This document shows positions 2,857-63,226 of a DNA stretch of 64,000 nucleotides, piece by piece. The notes beneath the pieces were generated by a model. The model was not told the DNA's origin. It saw only the letters and a program-made list of their open reading frames with translations, and searched no databases. Position numbers and translations under genes: made by a program. The first letter of the stretch is position 1. The number at the start of each line of letters is the position of its first letter. The stretch comes from Shigella phage SSP1. Where the stretch lies: the sequence record KY963424. One strand, written 5' to 3'.

Positions 2857-3294
2857 ATGGCAAGCAATGTAAAATATAAACGCGATGCTATATCCCTTAT
2901 GAGAGACGGAATAAAAAGTCAATATAAAAAAGACTCTCAATGTGCTATCTGCGGTTGTGCTGAAGAATTAGAGCTTCATCATTACCATACGGTGTCTCTA
3001 CTAGTTAAAAAATTTGCTAAAGAACTCCAATTGGATTTCACTGACGAAGAAATAGTCCTTTCAAATAGGACGGCATTCTATGATCGATATAGGCATGAGC
3101 TAGTAGAAGACACTGTTACCCTTTGTGTACACCATCACCAATTATTACATAAGGTTTACACAAAAGAACCTCCTTTATTTTCTGCTAATAAGCAAAAAGT
3201 GTGGGTTCAAAAGCAGAAAGACAAATTACAGAATCCTCAAGAAAAGACACAAGTCAAGACTGAAACAAAATCAGGATTCGCAAGGTTCTTATAA
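2857..3294 (+). CDS. HNH endonuclease-like protein (terminase-associated)
   Basis: Start moved to ATG 2857 (GAGGAG SD at 2845-2850); the six-frame start at 2770 falls inside the hairpin after terL. CxxC (CAICGC) ... LHHYH ... N ... CVHHHQLLH is consistent with a His-Me finger/HNH motif. Confidence 0.45.
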   Translation: MASNVKYKRDAISLMRDGIKSQYKKDSQCAICGCAEELELHHYHTVSLLVKKFAKELQLDFTDEEIVLSNRTAFYDRYRHELVEDTVTLCVHHHQLLHKVYTKEPPLFSANKQKVWVQKQKDKLQNPQEKTQVKTETKSGFARFL

Positions 3295-54175: not shown

Positions 54176-54667
54176 ATGAACACTGAAATAACACAAGACC
54201 TACTAAGAACTTACTTTGACTATAAAGATGGAGAATTGTTTTACAAACCAACTTATAAAACCCCTGCAGGAAGAATATCCAAAAAAGCAGGTAAATCCGC
54301 CAGACTAACTCCGAGTAACGGGTACTATCGTATAAATGTACCAAGAATAGGTGTACAGAAAGAACATAGGATGATTTTCCTATATCATGAAGGATACCTA
54401 CCAGAAGTAGTAGATCATATTGATAGGGATAAGGAAAATAATAGGATAGAGAACCTTAGGGCATCTAATCTTCAGGACAACGCTATTAATCGCTCCATAA
54501 GTAAGAGTAACACCTCTGGCATTGTGGGTGTCCATTATGATGAATCGTATGGTAAGTGGGTTGTAACGTATAGGGGTAAGTACTTTGGAAGATTTGATAC
54601 CAAAGAAGAAGCTGCCGAAGTTAATGCTAATGTTCGTGCCCTTGATCAAACCCGTATAAATAGTTGA
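54176..54667 (+). CDS. HNH homing endonuclease with AP2-type DNA-binding domain
   Basis: 163 aa; HNH_3-type motif (YLPEVVDHIDRDKENNRIENLRASNLQDN) followed by AP2-like segment (GIVGVHYDESYGKWVVTYRGKYFGRFDTKEEAA). Confidence 0.7.
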   Translation: MNTEITQDLLRTYFDYKDGELFYKPTYKTPAGRISKKAGKSARLTPSNGYYRINVPRIGVQKEHRMIFLYHEGYLPEVVDHIDRDKENNRIENLRASNLQDNAINRSISKSNTSGIVGVHYDESYGKWVVTYRGKYFGRFDTKEEAAEVNANVRALDQTRINS

Positions 54668-55970: not shown

Positions 55971-58301
55971 ATGAGTCATCGCATTGAAAAAGTAATTAAA
56001 CGTGACGGTACTGTAGAAGACTTTGCTCCTGAAAAAATCAATGGTTGGGCAGAGTATGGTTGCAAAACAGTTGATGTAAGTTGGTCAGCCATTACTATGG
56101 CTGCTCAAAAAACTCTGCCTAAAGGGGTTGTAGATTCCGACACTCTGATGGATGCATTAATTAAAGCTGCTGAAAGTCTTATTAAAGATAATCCAGCATA
56201 TGATGTGCCAGCAAAGGAATTACGTCTTGCGCAAATGCGTAAACGCCTTTATGATTCTTTCGAACCACCTTCTCTACGCTTCTTCCATGATCACATGGTT
56301 AGCGTAGGTGCATGGGAAGACATGAGTGCATGGATTACCGATGAGCAATTTGAAGCTCTGAATCAGGTTATCGACCATGATCGTGACCGTCTTTTTACTA
56401 GTGGTGGGCTGAAGCAGTTCTTTGATAAGTATTCCCGTCGTAACATAGCCACTGGTGAAATCTATGAAACTCCGCAGTTTGCCTACATGGGTATGGCAAT
56501 GGCGATGTTATCTCAACCTAACTGGACAATTCTAGATGCAATCGACCTCTACAACGCAATGTCACTCCACAAAATCAACGTTCCTACGCCGCCACTGGTT
56601 GGTCTGCGCTCTAGTGACCGTGGATTTGCTAGTTGCTGCCTCGTGGATTCCACTGACACGTTGGATTCAATCGACACCGCCGAGCACATCGTCTTCAAAA
56701 TGGTCGCAGCCAGAGCGGGAATCGGGTATCATCTTGAAAGCCGATCAATTGCTGATCCGGTGCGAAATGGGGCATTCCCGCATTCCGGAAAACTGCCATA
56801 TTATCGACACATTGACCGCTCAGTAAAGGCCAATACTCAGCAAACTCGTGGTGGTTCTGCTACAGTGTCTTATCCGTACTTCGACCCTGAAATCATTCAA
56901 TTGATGCAGGTTAAGCAGCAACGTGCTACAGATGAGAATAAAATCGATAAGATGGATTATTCTCTGAGCTTTAACAATCTTTTGTTAAAACGTTATCTTA
57001 AAAACGAAGATATTACGCTAATGTCATACTTCTATGCTCCAGAAGTTCATGAAGCGTTTTATAGTGATGACGAGGCTAAATTTGAAGAAATCTACGTGGC
57101 AGCGGAGAAACGTGTGGCATCTCTTACAAAGATCGACCACGAAGGAAAAACAGTTCCAGCAGCTCCTAAAGTCTCTGCAAAAGAAATCCTAGATACTTGG
57201 CTACGTATCCGAATGGAAACAGGACGTATGTATGCTCATCACATCGGGGAATCTAATCGTCACGGTAACTTCCTTGATCCGATCCGTATGACAAACCTTT
57301 GTGTTGAAATTACTCAGCCTACACGCCCATTCCATCATATCACGGAACTGTATAAAACAAAAGAACAACTTGATCAAATGAAGCCGGAGGATATTGGTGA
57401 AGTATCTCTGTGTAACTTAGGTGGTGTTGTACTTGGACGCATGGAATCTCTGGCCGAGTGGGAAAAAACTTGCTACATCCTCCTGAAATTCGTTGATACA
57501 ATTATTGAAATTCAGGATTATCCGTTCCCAACTATGGAATATACGGCTAAGAAACGTCGTAATGTTGGTATTGGCCTGATGAACGCAGCAGGTGCAATGG
57601 CAGCAGAAGGTCTGGCTTATGAAGGTATTGAAGCCCGTAACTGGATTCACCGTGAGGCTGAAAAACTGTCTTACTTCCTGCATAAAGCCTCTGTACGCCT
57701 AGCTAAAGAACAGGGCGCATGTGAGTGGTTTGATCGTACTAAACCATCTAAAGGAATTCTGGTAATCGACACGTACAAGAAAACTGTTGATGAACTGGTA
57801 TCCGTAGGTCTAGAAATGGATTGGGAGTCTCTACGTGCAGATATTCTGAAATATGGTATGCGTAACTCTGTTCTGACTGCTCAGATGCCGGGAGAAAGTT
57901 CTTCTGTTCTGTTAGGTGTTACTAACTCTATCGAACCACCTCGTAAGATTGTATCTATCAAGGGTAGTGCAGTTAATAAAGTAATTGCAATTGCTCCAGG
58001 TGCAACCGATTGGGAAACGTTAATGAGCTATAAACTGGCTTATGATGTAGATCGTATCGAGTGGATCAAGTGGGTAGCAACTATGCAGAAATTCTTCAGT
58101 CAGTCTATCAGTACGAATATGTACTATGACTACACCAAGTTTGAGAATGAAATCATTCCTGGCCCAGTAGTAGTTCGTGATTTCATGACTGCTGTTAAGT
58201 ATGGGTGGAAAACTTGGTATTATGCTAACTTCAATACCGCAAATGGTGGAGGTGCTGGAGAAGAAGCAGCCGGTTGTGCATCCGGCGGTTGTACTATTTA
58301 A
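55971..58301 (+). CDS. nrdA: Ribonucleoside-diphosphate reductase alpha subunit (class Ia)
   Basis: About 776 aa from ATG 55971 (AAGGAAAG SD); N-terminal ATP-cone (HRIEKVIKRDGTVEDF), catalytic core and C-terminal redox cysteine pair (CASGGC). Confidence 0.9.
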   Translation: MSHRIEKVIKRDGTVEDFAPEKINGWAEYGCKTVDVSWSAITMAAQKTLPKGVVDSDTLMDALIKAAESLIKDNPAYDVPAKELRLAQMRKRLYDSFEPPSLRFFHDHMVSVGAWEDMSAWITDEQFEALNQVIDHDRDRLFTSGGLKQFFDKYSRRNIATGEIYETPQFAYMGMAMAMLSQPNWTILDAIDLYNAMSLHKINVPTPPLVGLRSSDRGFASCCLVDSTDTLDSIDTAEHIVFKMVAARAGIGYHLESRSIADPVRNGAFPHSGKLPYYRHIDRSVKANTQQTRGGSATVSYPYFDPEIIQLMQVKQQRATDENKIDKMDYSLSFNNLLLKRYLKNEDITLMSYFYAPEVHEAFYSDDEAKFEEIYVAAEKRVASLTKIDHEGKTVPAAPKVSAKEILDTWLRIRMETGRMYAHHIGESNRHGNFLDPIRMTNLCVEITQPTRPFHHITELYKTKEQLDQMKPEDIGEVSLCNLGGVVLGRMESLAEWEKTCYILLKFVDTIIEIQDYPFPTMEYTAKKRRNVGIGLMNAAGAMAAEGLAYEGIEARNWIHREAEKLSYFLHKASVRLAKEQGACEWFDRTKPSKGILVIDTYKKTVDELVSVGLEMDWESLRADILKYGMRNSVLTAQMPGESSSVLLGVTNSIEPPRKIVSIKGSAVNKVIAIAPGATDWETLMSYKLAYDVDRIEWIKWVATMQKFFSQSISTNMYYDYTKFENEIIPGPVVVRDFMTAVKYGWKTWYYANFNTANGGGAGEEAAGCASGGCTI

Positions 58302-58309
58302 TAAAAACA

Positions 58310-58334
58310 AGGAGATCTTCGGGTCTCCTTTTTC
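58310..58334 (+). terminator. Rho-independent terminator after nrdA
   Basis: 8-bp stem AGGAGATC/GGTCTCCT (one G-U) with UUCG tetraloop, followed by TTTTC. Confidence 0.7.
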
Positions 58335-58347
58335 TTTGAAATTTTAC

Positions 58348-58376
58348 TTGCTAATCGCTACCAGATTTGCTATAAT
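58348..58376 (+). promoter_or_regulatory. sigma70 early promoter for nrdB-frd-thyA operon
   Basis: GAAATTTTACTTGCTA: TTGCTA - 17 bp - TATAAT. Confidence 0.65.
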
Positions 58377-58407
58377 ATTCCTGAAATAGTGAGAAAGAGG
58401 AAAATCA

Positions 58408-59553
58408 ATGACTACTTTACTAAACCTGAACTGGGATCATACTAACGCTGACCTTTTCCTGGGAGATTCTCTCGGTATCGCAGATTATGTACGTGTAGCA
58501 CATCCAGAACTAGAACGTCTGGCACTTCTGCAACGCTCTCAATTTTGGACTGAAACTGAAATCAGTCTGGAAGCAGATAAGAAACAATGGCCTAATCTCC
58601 CGCGTGAAATTCAGGAAATTACACTCCTGAACTTAGCATGGCAGACTCAAACAGATTCCTTTATCAGTCGTGCTCCTGAAGCAGCTATTATGCCGCTTGT
58701 AAGTCGTCCAGAATTGGAAGGTATGCTCAAGCAGTGGAGCTACTTCGAAGATCTACATAGTCGTGCTTATAGCAATATTATTCGTAATGTGCTAACTGAT
58801 CCAGCAGAATTTATTGATTCTGTAACCAAAAACCAAGAAGCATTCGCACGCATCGCTGATTCTGTTGAACTATTCGATGAACTGTACCAGTTAGGTCAGT
58901 ATTTCATCGCAGTACGCGATCATCGTGGCGACAATACATATCCAGAAACTGAGTTCCCTGAAGTTAAACGTGAAACTCAGGCTAAACTATTAGACGCTTA
59001 CTTTGCGATCTATGGTCTGGAAGCAATGCAGTTTTACGCATCCTTTGCATGTACCTTTGCATTAGCAGAGAACGATATTCTGCAAGGTATTGCTAAAAAT
59101 CTGCAATTAATCGCTAAAGATGAAGCTCTGCACACTCAGATGTCCAAAGCAATCATCCAGATTATGTTCCAGCAGTTTGACAAAGACCTGGTGGATGAAG
59201 CAGTGGCTAAAGCACCAGCACAGCTCCTGAAAACTCTGAAAACTGAAATTGAATGGGGTCACTTCATTTTCAAAGGTCGTAGTCTGATTGGCTTGAATGC
59301 AGAACTTCTAGAAGAATATCTGTACTTTGTGGGGCGTAATGCATTTATGCACATCGGTGTAGAATGGCCAAGTAACCTGCCGGTAATCACCAAGAACCCT
59401 ATTCCATGGATCATGAACTGGTTGGATACCACTTCTTTACAGCCTGCTCCACAAGAAATCCAGATTGGTGCAGCATATCGTGTAGGTCAGGTAACTGAGA
59501 CCTCTACTGATACTCTGAAAGATCTGGGCAATGAATTTGGAGATTTCTTATGA
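58408..59553 (+). CDS. nrdB: Ribonucleoside-diphosphate reductase beta subunit (class Ia)
   Basis: 381 aa; ferritin-like fold with di-iron ligand pattern (E ... H) and radical tyrosine region; immediately followed by frd with 4-nt overlap. Confidence 0.9.
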   Translation: MTTLLNLNWDHTNADLFLGDSLGIADYVRVAHPELERLALLQRSQFWTETEISLEADKKQWPNLPREIQEITLLNLAWQTQTDSFISRAPEAAIMPLVSRPELEGMLKQWSYFEDLHSRAYSNIIRNVLTDPAEFIDSVTKNQEAFARIADSVELFDELYQLGQYFIAVRDHRGDNTYPETEFPEVKRETQAKLLDAYFAIYGLEAMQFYASFACTFALAENDILQGIAKNLQLIAKDEALHTQMSKAIIQIMFQQFDKDLVDEAVAKAPAQLLKTLKTEIEWGHFIFKGRSLIGLNAELLEEYLYFVGRNAFMHIGVEWPSNLPVITKNPIPWIMNWLDTTSLQPAPQEIQIGAAYRVGQVTETSTDTLKDLGNEFGDFL

Positions 59554-60929: not shown

Positions 60930-60944
60930 AGCCCTTCGGGGCTA
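60930..60944 (+). terminator. Short GC hairpin after thyA (weak terminator)
   Basis: AGCCC-TTCG-GGGCT hairpin followed by A/T-rich sequence without a clean U-tract. Confidence 0.3.
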
Positions 60945-60962
60945 TTATATTTGAAATTGTAC

Positions 60963-60992
60963 TTGCTTATTAAGTACAATTTCAAATATAAT
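60963..60992 (+). promoter_or_regulatory. sigma70 early promoter embedded in a 22-bp perfect inverted repeat
   Basis: TTGCTT - 18 bp - TATAAT; arms of the inverted repeat at 60943-60964 and 60972-60993. Confidence 0.6.
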
Positions 60993-61021
60993 ATACTCAA
61001 TAAGTACAAAAGGATAATAAA

Positions 61022-61405
61022 ATGAGTAAAGAAATTGAATTAGAACAAGCCCTTCTGAATTACTCCAATTACTTGCAGGGTGATAAAGAAACTATTACTA
61101 AGGAACAGGTATTATTAATACTAGACTCTATCACTTCTAAATTCAGGACTTTAGAAGACTACTACTCTGTAGGCAATGGAGATGAGAAGGTAGAGTTATG
61201 TCTAAATCTCCTAGAAGATATGGGTTGGGATGAGGAAGATCAAGTAGGGTATTTAGGTATATCTACAGAAATTCTAGAAAATACAGAGCATGAAAATATA
61301 CTTGAAGTAAAGAGCAGAAGTGCTATTCGATATAATACTTATGGTACAGGTATTACAGGAATAAAAGCATTACTTAGTATAGACATAGGATGGTTAGATG
61401 AGTAA
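61022..61405 (+). CDS. Hypothetical acidic protein
   Basis: 127-aa ORF downstream of the palindromic promoter. Confidence 0.45.
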   Translation: MSKEIELEQALLNYSNYLQGDKETITKEQVLLILDSITSKFRTLEDYYSVGNGDEKVELCLNLLEDMGWDEEDQVGYLGISTEILENTEHENILEVKSRSAIRYNTYGTGITGIKALLSIDIGWLDE

Positions 61406-61946
61406 AAAGTTACCTAGCCAAGAAAGATTAAAAGAAATACTAATCTATGATCCAGATACTGGTATATTTACTAATAAGGTAAGTCGTGGTAGGGGAGGAA
61501 AAGCAGGTTCGCCAGCTGGATACCTAAGAAAAGATGGCTATATAACTATTAAGATAGATAAAATAGATTATTTAGCGCATAGGTTAGCCTTTCTATACAT
61601 GACAGGATCAATACCTGATTTAATAGACCACAAAAATAGAATTAGGTCAGATAATAGGTGGATAAATCTAAGAGAAGCTACAAGCCAGTCTAATAACAGA
61701 AATTGTACCGCATCGAGTAAATCTGGATATCTAGGTGTACACTGGAACAAACAACTACAGAAATGGCAAGTACAGGTGATTGATAATAATGGTAAAAATA
61801 TTTACGGGGGTGTTTTTGATTACTTAGACCTAGAAAGTGCGGTCATAAAGGCTAATGAACTAAGAAAAACACTTCATGGTAGCGAAGCAGTTATAGAAGA
61901 TTTCTATACCAACTATTACCCACCAATAGAGGAACTTAATAAGTGA
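61398..61946 (+). CDS. HNH homing endonuclease with AP2-type DNA-binding domain
   Basis: 182 aa; HNH_3-type motif (HRLAFLYMTGSIPDLIDHKNRIRSDNRWINLREATSQSNNRN) followed by AP2-like segment (GYLGVHWNKQLQKWQVQVIDNNGKNIYGGVFDYLDLESA). Confidence 0.7.
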   Translation: MSKKLPSQERLKEILIYDPDTGIFTNKVSRGRGGKAGSPAGYLRKDGYITIKIDKIDYLAHRLAFLYMTGSIPDLIDHKNRIRSDNRWINLREATSQSNNRNCTASSKSGYLGVHWNKQLQKWQVQVIDNNGKNIYGGVFDYLDLESAVIKANELRKTLHGSEAVIEDFYTNYYPPIEELNK

Positions 61947-62419
61947 GCGTTTTCCACATTTACACAGATGGTGCTTGTAAGTCTAACCCAGGTCCAGGTG
62001 CTTGGGGTTTTATTGTTTATGATGATAACGACGATCGTTTAGGTTCTAAATCTGGTTATAATCCTAAAACTACAAATAATGAGATGGAACTCACAGCTAT
62101 TGTAGAAGCTTTACGTTGGTCTGTTAAAAAAGATAATAGACCAATTGCTATCTATACTGACTCTGCTTATTGCAAAAATGGCATGGAAAGTTGGATGTTT
62201 TCTTGGCAAAGGAAAGGCTGGAAGAAAGCAGATGGTGAAGTTCCTCTTAATCTAGAACTTTGGCAGGAAGCATTTAAATTAACACAGCAGTATATCAACT
62301 TTCATAATACTAATCCTACCTTTATTAAGGTTAAAGGACATTCTGGTATTAGTGGTAATGAAGCTGTAGATGCATTGTGTAATACTGTTATTACTGAAGC
62401 TGAAATGGCTGAGATGTAA
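61943..62419 (+). CDS. rnh: Ribonuclease H
   Basis: 158 aa; RNase HI pattern (IYTDGACKSNPGPGAWG ... NNEMELTA ... IYTDS ... KGHSG ... NE.VD.L). Confidence 0.85.
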   Translation: MSVFHIYTDGACKSNPGPGAWGFIVYDDNDDRLGSKSGYNPKTTNNEMELTAIVEALRWSVKKDNRPIAIYTDSAYCKNGMESWMFSWQRKGWKKADGEVPLNLELWQEAFKLTQQYINFHNTNPTFIKVKGHSGISGNEAVDALCNTVITEAEMAEM

Positions 62420-62495: not shown

Positions 62496-62780
62496 ATGCG
62501 GATTTATAACTCAAATTCATTAGGATTTAAGCCATTGAGAAAACGTGCACAATCACCTCGTCAAATAAGAAAGGCTAATATTGGTGAGCCAGAAACACGT
62601 CTTCCACCTCCTCCAGAGCAACGTTTAGTTTATCTGGACGAAGAGTTAGCTGAACGCGAAAGAAAAGCTCAAGAAGAGATTGAGCGTAAGAAAATGTGTA
62701 CTGCTCCAGCCTACTCCAAAGGGGCTTATCAGTATATCTATACAGCCGAGGAGGCTAAAGATGCGGGGCGTAAAAAATGA
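62496..62780 (+). CDS. Hypothetical protein
   Basis: 94-aa ORF with strong SD. Confidence 0.45.
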   Translation: MRIYNSNSLGFKPLRKRAQSPRQIRKANIGEPETRLPPPPEQRLVYLDEELAERERKAQEEIERKKMCTAPAYSKGAYQYIYTAEEAKDAGRKK

Positions 62781-63226
62781 AGATTACCGAATTTAAAGGT
62801 ACTTATAGTTTCTTATCTAACTTTTATTTATCACCAATTACTTTCGAATACCTAAACGAGATATGGCATGCTGATACTGTAGAACATGCTTTTCAGGCTA
62901 TGAAATCCGACCAAAAAGATGATGTAGCTCATGTACTGCGCTCCCTAAATGCAGGTGTTGCCAAACGTAGAGGACGTAAATTAACTCTGCGCTCTGACTG
63001 GGATAAGGTAAAAGATGATGTAATGCTAGAGCTTTTACGGTTAAAGTTTGCAATCCCTGATTTGAGAGACAAACTGTTAGCAACAAAAAATGCAACTTTG
63101 ATCGAAGGAAATACCTGGGGAGATACATATTGGGGTGTTTGCCGAGGAATCGGGGATAATACTTTAGGAGTTCTTTTGATGCAGGTAAGGTCTGAAATTA
63201 AAAGAAGCTTACAGTTAATAAATTAA
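62777..63226 (+). CDS. NADAR-domain (YbiA-like, DUF1768) protein
   Basis: 149 aa; YSFLSNFY ... VEHAFQAMK ... W ... NTWGDTYWG ... GDNTLGVLLMQVR matches the NADAR signature well. Confidence 0.7.
   Translation: MKITEFKGTYSFLSNFYLSPITFEYLNEIWHADTVEHAFQAMKSDQKDDVAHVLRSLNAGVAKRRGRKLTLRSDWDKVKDDVMLELLRLKFAIPDLRDKLLATKNATLIEGNTWGDTYWGVCRGIGDNTLGVLLMQVRSEIKRSLQLIN

Follow-up and report, generated by a model that had tools for sequence, protein, structure and literature searches.

The 64,000-nucleotide stretch of Shigella phage SSP1 DNA (sequence record KY963424) that we analysed, here called the window, carries an open reading frame (ORF) at 61398-61946 that runs into the start of rnh, the gene for RNase H. 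This locus raises the question of what the ORF encodes and how it came to lie there. An initial annotation, made from the sequence alone, had read it as an HNH-AP2 homing endonuclease gene inserted upstream of rnh. The analysis described here establishes that the ORF is real and supports that reading. Our preferred explanation, to which we assign a probability of roughly three in four, is that the ORF is a free-standing homing endonuclease gene (HEG) with an active product, in which a nuclease of the HNH_3/I-HmuI type is followed by an AP2 domain at the C terminus, and that it resides in an operon running from a promoter through orf127 and the HEG to rnh.

Gene model and genomic setting

Searches with the 182-amino-acid product retrieved 1541 database homologues at E ≤ 1e-10, which places the ORF far above chance. 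Its start lies within the last codons of orf127, with which it shares 8 nt (ATGAGTAA), and its TGA stop shares 4 nt (GTGA) with the GTG start of rnh at 61943, in agreement with the small overlaps with both neighbours that had been described for this gene. The sequence AGGA at 61387-61390 reads as a plausible Shine-Dalgarno element for the nuclease gene. Coordinates of this and the surrounding features are collected in Table 1.

The local order of elements is nrdB, frd, thy, a terminator and promoter, orf127, the nuclease gene, rnh, an ORF of 94 amino acids and a NADAR gene. Across the 4 kb around the nuclease gene, the window shares 96.7% identity with Escherichia phage Lindwurm, and 444 phage records match these 4 kb, almost all of them T5-like (Demerecviridae, Tequintavirus). 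The window is a Tequintavirus, that is, a T5-like phage. The NADAR-domain gene at the end of this series (62777-63226, forward strand; Pfam E = 6e-22), which is called ybiA or N-glycosidase in relatives, is itself patchily distributed, being absent from fp01, Bf23, NR01 and T5 and present in Lindwurm and slur09, and no nuclease gene adjoins it.

Table 1 Features of the thy-rnh region of the window
Feature	Coordinates	Strand	Description	Basis
Rho-independent terminator after thy	60930..60952	+	Stem AGCCC/GGGCT, loop TTCG, T-rich tail	Read from sequence
Early promoter of the rnh operon (predicted)	60963..60992	+	-35 TTGCTT 60963-60968, 18-nt spacer, -10 TATAAT 60987-60992	
Variable segment of the slot	60997..61948	+	5′ leader, orf127, nuclease gene and rnh codons 1-2	Alignments
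orf127	61022..61405	+	Acidic ORFan (pI 4.2), 127 aa; PHROG_26840, function not assigned	
HNH_3-AP2 endonuclease gene	61398..61946	+	ATG start, TGA stop, 182 aa	Sequence, domain searches, model
HNH_3 (His-Me finger) catalytic core	61569..61700	+	Residues 58-101	Pfam, family alignment, PDB profile search
AP2-type DNA-binding domain	61719..61886	+	Residues ~108-163; three antiparallel strands and a long helix	
3′ end of nuclease gene (GAGGAACTTAATAAGTGA)	61929..61946	+	Holds GAGGA 61929-61933 and the overlapping rnh GTG start	
rnh (RNase H)	61943..62419	+	Codons 1-2 GTG AGC; gene downstream of the nuclease gene	

An HNH_3 catalytic core joined to an AP2 domain

The HNH domain proposed in the initial annotation is recognized above the curated Pfam cut-off. 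HNH_3 (PF13392) matches residues 58-101 over its full length (profile positions 1-46), scoring 51.4 bits where 24.8 would suffice (E = 8.3e-14), and the protein matches PHROG_99, ‘HNH endonuclease’, at E = 3.5e-64. In an alignment of 45 homologues, residues D77, H78, N86, N90, N99 and N102 are invariant, the last of these lying just beyond the HNH_3 range. A profile made from these 45 sequences and searched against the PDB matches, over positions 32-105, the N-terminal half of I-HmuI (1u3e) at E = 3e-7, and in this match the six invariant residues align with D74, H75, N83, N87, N96 and N99 of I-HmuI, which have catalytic and structural roles there. The catalytic residues D77, H78 and N99 are therefore intact, and the Asp-His pair and metal-binding Asn that characterize I-HmuI-like His-Me fingers are present. 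The roles of these I-HmuI residues are reportedly those given by Shen and colleagues in 2004.

An AlphaFold model of the nuclease, built from the same 45-sequence alignment, has a pLDDT of 92.8. In its HNH region, strands at residues 76-78 and 91-93 are followed by a helix at 96-101, in keeping with a beta-beta-alpha fold. Because I-HmuI is not among the top Foldseek matches for the whole model, the link between the HNH region and 1u3e rests on the sequence profile.

The AP2 domain is confirmed by homologue annotations, the family profile and the structure model, despite a sub-threshold Pfam score. When the protein is scanned alone, AP2 (PF00847) matches residues 110-158 with 15.1 bits, short of the required 33.3 (E = 0.03), and a single-sequence search of the PDB with the nuclease returns AP2 matches that are only marginal, the best being a Plasmodium AP2 domain at E = 0.26. 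A family profile is thus required for AP2 detection in this protein. Many homologues of equal length bear both PF00847 and PF13392 in precomputed annotations, and the 45-sequence profile matches the AP2 domain of Arabidopsis WRI1 (7wq5) over positions 108-161 at E = 2.2e-8 and that of TEM1 (7et4) at E = 0.0018. In the AlphaFold model, strands at residues 114-117, 122-128 and 134-140 precede a helix at 142-163, and Foldseek aligns this model to the AtERF1 AP2 domain (1gcc) with a TM score of 0.74 on the target and a probability of 1.0. Further AP2 matches from Foldseek are TEM1 (7et5) and ERF96 (5wx9). The profile match to WRI1 and the model match to AtERF1 together uphold the AP2 assignment made at the outset.

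A variable slot between thy and rnh

Comparison of synteny among relatives agrees with an insertion upstream of rnh. In T5, the interval between thy and rnh measures 133 bp and holds the promoter and a 5′ leader only, and other relatives carry unrelated cassettes at this place. In alignments to genomes that lack the HEG, similarity ends 3-4 nt past the -10 box (~60996) and restarts at codon 3 of rnh (61949). The segment between these borders measures ~950 bp in the window, ~60 bp in T5 and ~300 bp in slur09. The window therefore does hold extra DNA relative to the empty site, as had been proposed, although the inserted unit is larger than the nuclease gene that was originally named: it spans ~950 bp and contains two genes, orf127 and the nuclease gene.

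The left homology arm of the slot includes the thy terminator, which is kept in all relatives, is invariant in the window, T5 and slur09, and is marked as a terminator at this position in the Lindwurm and Bf23 records as well. The T5 and Bf23 records also annotate a promoter at the position equivalent to that listed in Table 1. The TTGCTT/TATAAT pair at 60963-60992 went undetected in a consensus promoter scan, so the assignment of the rnh-operon promoter rests on these annotations and on our reading of the sequence.

At least five forms of the slot were counted among relatives, which are given here as states rather than as frequencies. The slot is empty in T5, DT571/2 and Kenya-K20; it holds an unrelated ORF of 93 amino acids (orf93) in slur09 and ~115 other T5-like records, two small ORFs in mar004NP2 and beppo, an HslV-like gene with a small ORF in Seafire, and orf127 with the nuclease gene in 35 records, including the window, Bf23 and Lindwurm. 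A megablast search with a 251-nt empty-site query gave 18 full-length matches, which is probably an undercount. Presence or absence at the locus is thus polymorphic among close relatives and has precise borders (one just beyond the -10 box, the other at codon 2 of rnh), as is characteristic of HEGs. Since the slot also houses cassettes that contain no nuclease, this pattern suggests insertion by homing but does not prove it.

The empty T5 interval ends with TTGGAGCAAATA-ATG, as does the 3′ end of an ORF of ~89 amino acids located in front of rnh in mar004NP2, Seafire and beppo. This common end raises the possibility that the empty slot of T5 is not ancestral, and it may instead have arisen from the two-ORF state by deletion.

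Exchange of divergent variants and spread to other loci

The presence of the HEG does not track relatedness. The flanks of the HEG-less phages slur09 and HK6 are 97.5% and 97.2% identical to those of the window, which makes them nearer to it than several phages that bear the HEG, such as phiLLS (94.2%), T5_ev219 (93.7%) and NG_A1 (92.8%). Furthermore, three HEG variants (97-100%, ~81% and ~60% identical) occupy one position beside an orf127 that is kept at 96-99% identity. When the window is compared with Bf23 and NR01, nucleotide identity is 0.97-1.00 across orf127 and then drops, exactly at 61403, to 0.77 (Bf23) or 0.62 (NR01). In Bf23 it recovers ~55 nt into rnh, in NR01 not until past the end of that gene. 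Between the nuclease genes of the window and Bf23, synonymous sites are saturated and the proteins are ~81-82% identical, yet the flanks are nearly identical; old, divergent variants of the gene have therefore been swapped at this junction.

The downstream edge of the Bf23 element is also mosaic. The first ~55 nt of Bf23 rnh are 93% identical to NR01 (the Epseptimavirus/NR01 type) and 70% identical to the window, whereas the remainder is Tequintavirus-like (93-95%). This two-part structure indicates a recombination junction ~55 nt inside rnh, beside the HEG. The identity breaks at the HEG border and ~55 nt into Bf23 rnh fit co-conversion; however, the diverged patch occurs also in Epseptimaviruses that lack the HEG, and the patch therefore shows recombination only. 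The idea that the patch (rnh nt ~37-55) confers HEG-specific immunity of the target site in Bf23 and NR01 was ruled out because HEG-less Seafire and beppo share it. Judged by these comparisons, the patch is a lineage allele that was moved by recombination.

Related copies of the gene also reside elsewhere. In L6jm, a paralogue that is 61-63% identical lies at another locus, and the similarity spans start codon to stop codon only. Paralogues of ~60% identity are likewise found at unrelated loci in slur09, BB1, oldekolle and others. Related copies at different sites, with similarity confined to the element as in L6jm, are a hallmark of HEGs.

Such evidence bears on the strongest rival to homing, in which the slot is a cassette hot spot whose content is exchanged by homologous recombination between the promoter and rnh, with the nuclease gene carried as passive cargo and its enzyme uninvolved. 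At least four nuclease-free cassette states fill the slot with the same borders, and the neighbouring NADAR gene comes and goes with no nuclease beside it; indeed, the cassettes without a nuclease (orf93, the two small ORFs and the HslV-like gene) imply that ordinary promoter-rnh recombination can also swap the content of the slot. Nevertheless, passive exchange leaves unexplained the 60-63% identical paralogues that sit elsewhere and resemble the gene within the ORF only, the mutual replacement of three divergent HEG variants beside a near-invariant orf127, and the strong purifying selection on the protein that is described below. We consider this explanation unlikely.

Purifying selection on the nuclease

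The dN/dS of the nuclease gene is ~0.05 in comparisons with Lindwurm and fp01. The gene is under strong purifying selection, and the protein is maintained. This observation could also be accommodated if the nuclease had been domesticated, such that it has lost homing and serves the phage, for instance by excluding relatives that co-infect the cell or by regulating early genes as an AP2-type DNA-binding protein. The tight translational coupling of the gene into an operon with an essential gene is in keeping with domestication as well, and bioinformatics cannot distinguish homing nucleases from domesticated HEG-like ones (PMC10448857). However, the gene is missing from most T5-like phages, T5 included, and hence is dispensable. 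Its distribution is also patchy relative to the relatedness of the flanks, and a nuclease that excludes competitors could home as well. A domesticated nuclease that no longer homes therefore seems distinctly improbable to us.

That the gene is a decaying relic encoding no active enzyme is scarcely credible: HEGs are expected to decay after fixation and the neighbouring orf127 is frameshifted in Lindwurm, but the nuclease ORF is full length, keeps all invariant residues of the family including the catalytic D-H...N, has the low dN/dS given above and yields a confident structure model.

The rnh junction and the conserved 3′ end of the nuclease gene

The insertion alters the beginning of rnh. Codons 1-2 are GTG AGC in the window and ATG TCR in all five HEG-less genomes compared. 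From codon 3 onward, rnh of the window lineage is identical to the HEG-less allele. The sole Shine-Dalgarno element available to rnh in the window is GAGGA at 61929-61933, within the last codons of the nuclease gene. Even the L6jm paralogue retains the last 18 nt of this gene (GAGGAAyTwAATArrTGA), at 3032-3049 of the compared locus, and the 3′ end of T5 hegH (AGGAGAACTAATG) resembles those of other T5-like HNH-AP2 genes (GAGGAA..AATArrTGA). As far as can be read from these sequences, the conserved 3′ end of HNH-AP2 genes provides any downstream gene with a Shine-Dalgarno element and an overlapping start codon. Placement of such an end before rnh accounts for its GTG start and for AGC, rather than TCR, at codon 2.

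The change of codon 2 from TCR to AGY, both of which encode serine, was also considered as a protection against self-cleavage. A simpler explanation is the xTGA overlap of stop and start codons, because of which codon 2 must begin with A.

The junction GGAGCAAATA-ATG-TCR-GTT-TTC-CA is common to five of five HEG-less genomes, which represent four slot states and two genera, and it is replaced in each of the five HEG-bearing genomes examined. This junction, guessed from the comparison, is a likely candidate for the target of the enzyme. A target situated wholly inside rnh would leave the phage open to its own enzyme, given the identity of the two alleles from codon 3 onward.

Proposed mechanism of spread

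That the 182-amino-acid enzyme would cleave DNA and promote homing is what we infer from its domains and distribution; our literature search found no cleavage or homing experiment on this protein or a close relative. In the homing model, the setting would be co-infection with a relative that lacks the nuclease gene. A monomeric enzyme would bind a long asymmetric site through its AP2 domain and N-terminal sheet, and its His-Me finger would introduce a nick or a break into the HEG-less allele close to where rnh begins. Cleavage near the point of insertion is proposed by analogy with I-HmuI (PMC3017599) and with the free-standing HEGs of T4 (PMC2330249). Repair of the break from the HEG-bearing genome would copy the HEG and, along with it, orf127, because the left-hand homology arm stops at the promoter and the right-hand arm does not begin until rnh codon 3. 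The cost of the HEG would be kept low by its last 18 nt, which carry the Shine-Dalgarno element and the overlapping start for the downstream gene.

The companion gene orf127

In all 35 phage records that contain it, orf127 lies directly upstream of an HNH-AP2 nuclease gene at the thy-rnh locus. The nuclease gene that follows is 97-100% identical to that of the window in 24 of these records, ~81% identical in six and ~60% identical in five. A search among 5.8 billion proteins yielded only close homologues of orf127, which are confined to T5-like phages. The protein matches no Pfam family, and its AlphaFold model is of low confidence (pLDDT 57.8). In Lindwurm, the frameshift in orf127 results from a 1-nt insertion.

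That orf127 accompanies a nuclease gene in every one of the 35 records, although the three HEG variants involved share just 60-82% identity, perhaps reflects more than hitch-hiking. It is conceivable, but in our estimation doubtful, that orf127 is a functional partner of the HEG, for instance one that restrains self-cleavage by inhibition or DNA mimicry, or cargo beneficial enough to maintain the cassette in the population, and that the conserved HEG 3′ end is, in parallel, a portable adaptor made of a Shine-Dalgarno element and a start codon. If such an adaptor exists, it would let the element land before any gene without silencing that gene.

Relation to known homing endonucleases

The combination of HNH and AP2 domains was described as a homing endonuclease family of phages, cyanobacteria and ciliates by Magnani, Sjolander & Hake (2004), as cited in PMC5714182 and PMC10448857, and the family is placed with I-HmuI in group 2 of the His-Me finger nucleases (Jablonska et al. 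2017, PMC5714182). In Tequintavirus genomes, too, variation in HNH homing endonuclease genes is on record (PMC12639943). The window nuclease shares with the HNH-AP2 enzymes, including the ‘IPA-HNH’ relatives in ICP1 (PMC10448857), an N-terminal His-Me finger of the HNH_3 type, one C-terminal AP2 domain and a length of ~160-180 amino acids, and like them it is free-standing in a phage genome beside genes of replication and nucleotide metabolism. There is no substantive difference from this family, although the AP2 domain of the window protein is diverged and falls below the Pfam threshold when scanned alone.

Several relatives carry the same gene at the same locus. The ‘HNH endonuclease’ proteins of EH1 and vB STyj5-1 are 100% identical to the window nuclease, and fp01, Lindwurm, phiLLS and others encode a near-identical ‘HNH (homing) endonuclease’; within this 97-100% group there is no difference from the window gene to report. 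Bf23 hegE (WLW40698.1) lies in the same orf127-HEG-rnh arrangement with ~81% protein identity and, with its saturated synonymous sites, is an old variant. The nuclease gene is thus already known: GenBank contains annotated proteins identical to its product, the architecture has been in the literature since 2004, and nothing about the gene departs from the known HNH-AP2 kind.

More distant systems differ in domain composition or in location. For I-HmuI and I-BasI (intron-encoded nicking enzymes of the Bacillus phages SPO1 and Bastille; PDB 1u3e), the family profile covers I-HmuI residues 24-103, which comprise the N-terminal sheet and the HNH core, but I-HmuI is an intron-encoded nicking enzyme whose C-terminal half consists of helices and a helix-turn-helix rather than AP2. 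T5 hegH (putative H-N-H endonuclease P-TflVIII) belongs to the same family, with 36% identity to the window nuclease; it is also wedged between nucleotide-metabolism genes, its stop overlaps the downstream start and a Shine-Dalgarno element lies inside its 3′ end. Its locus is different, however: hegH sits between nrdA and nrdB, an interval that is gene-free in the window, whereas the thy-rnh interval is gene-free in T5. The mode of spread proposed here is that of the Seg and Mob HEGs of T4 (‘intronless homing’), in which the HEG-less relative is cleaved near the insertion and flanking markers are co-converted (SegB, PMC2330249). Unlike the window enzyme, Seg proteins are of the GIY-YIG type and Mob proteins combine HNH with a zinc finger rather than AP2, and the T4 mechanism was tested by experiment, whereas ours is derived from comparison.

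The locus adds one more HEG that marks the mosaic boundaries of T5-like genomes, here within a cluster of nucleotide-metabolism and replication genes, which matches published observations of HEGs at mosaic boundaries in other phages (PMC10448857, PMC12639943). The value of the finding is mainly a correct annotation, namely that of an HNH_3-AP2 (I-HmuI-like) homing endonuclease. In addition, T5-like phages could be engineered at the thy-rnh slot, where insertions occur naturally and are tolerated, and the nuclease, if characterized, could offer a new rare-cutting or nicking specificity.

Other nuclease genes in the window

The initial annotation had counted three HNH-type nucleases in the window, two of them with a common architecture and diverged sequences. 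The latter pair stands: the ORF at 54176-54667 matches HNH_3 at E = 2.7e-13 and AP2 at E = 3.4e-4, and its product is 35% identical to that of 61398-61946 (E = 1e-20). When every ORF in the six frames of the window is searched with a family HMM, these two are the only members recovered.

The third gene, at 2857-3294 on the forward strand, adjoins that of the terminase large subunit (1426-2742) and is of another kind. Its product has no Pfam match and a weak PHROG HNH match (E = 5.8e-6), and it contains CxxC...HH...CxxHH motifs. Over its full length it matches PDB entries 9qgv and 9qgx, named ‘Nicking endonuclease’, at E = 7e-81, which makes it a different kind of His-Me nuclease and not a homing enzyme. 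Single-strand nicks are typical of T5 DNA. Going by the name of the PDB deposit, the product of 2857-3294 is probably the maker of these nicks; our literature search found no paper on the T5 nicking endonuclease behind 9qgv and 9qgx.

HEG content also varies between the window and T5 at other slots of the gene cluster that contains rnh. Between nrdD and phoH, the window carries the HNH-AP2 gene at 54176-54667 where T5 has promoters only, and between nrdA and nrdB, T5 carries hegH where the window has a bare 106-bp gap (58301-58408).
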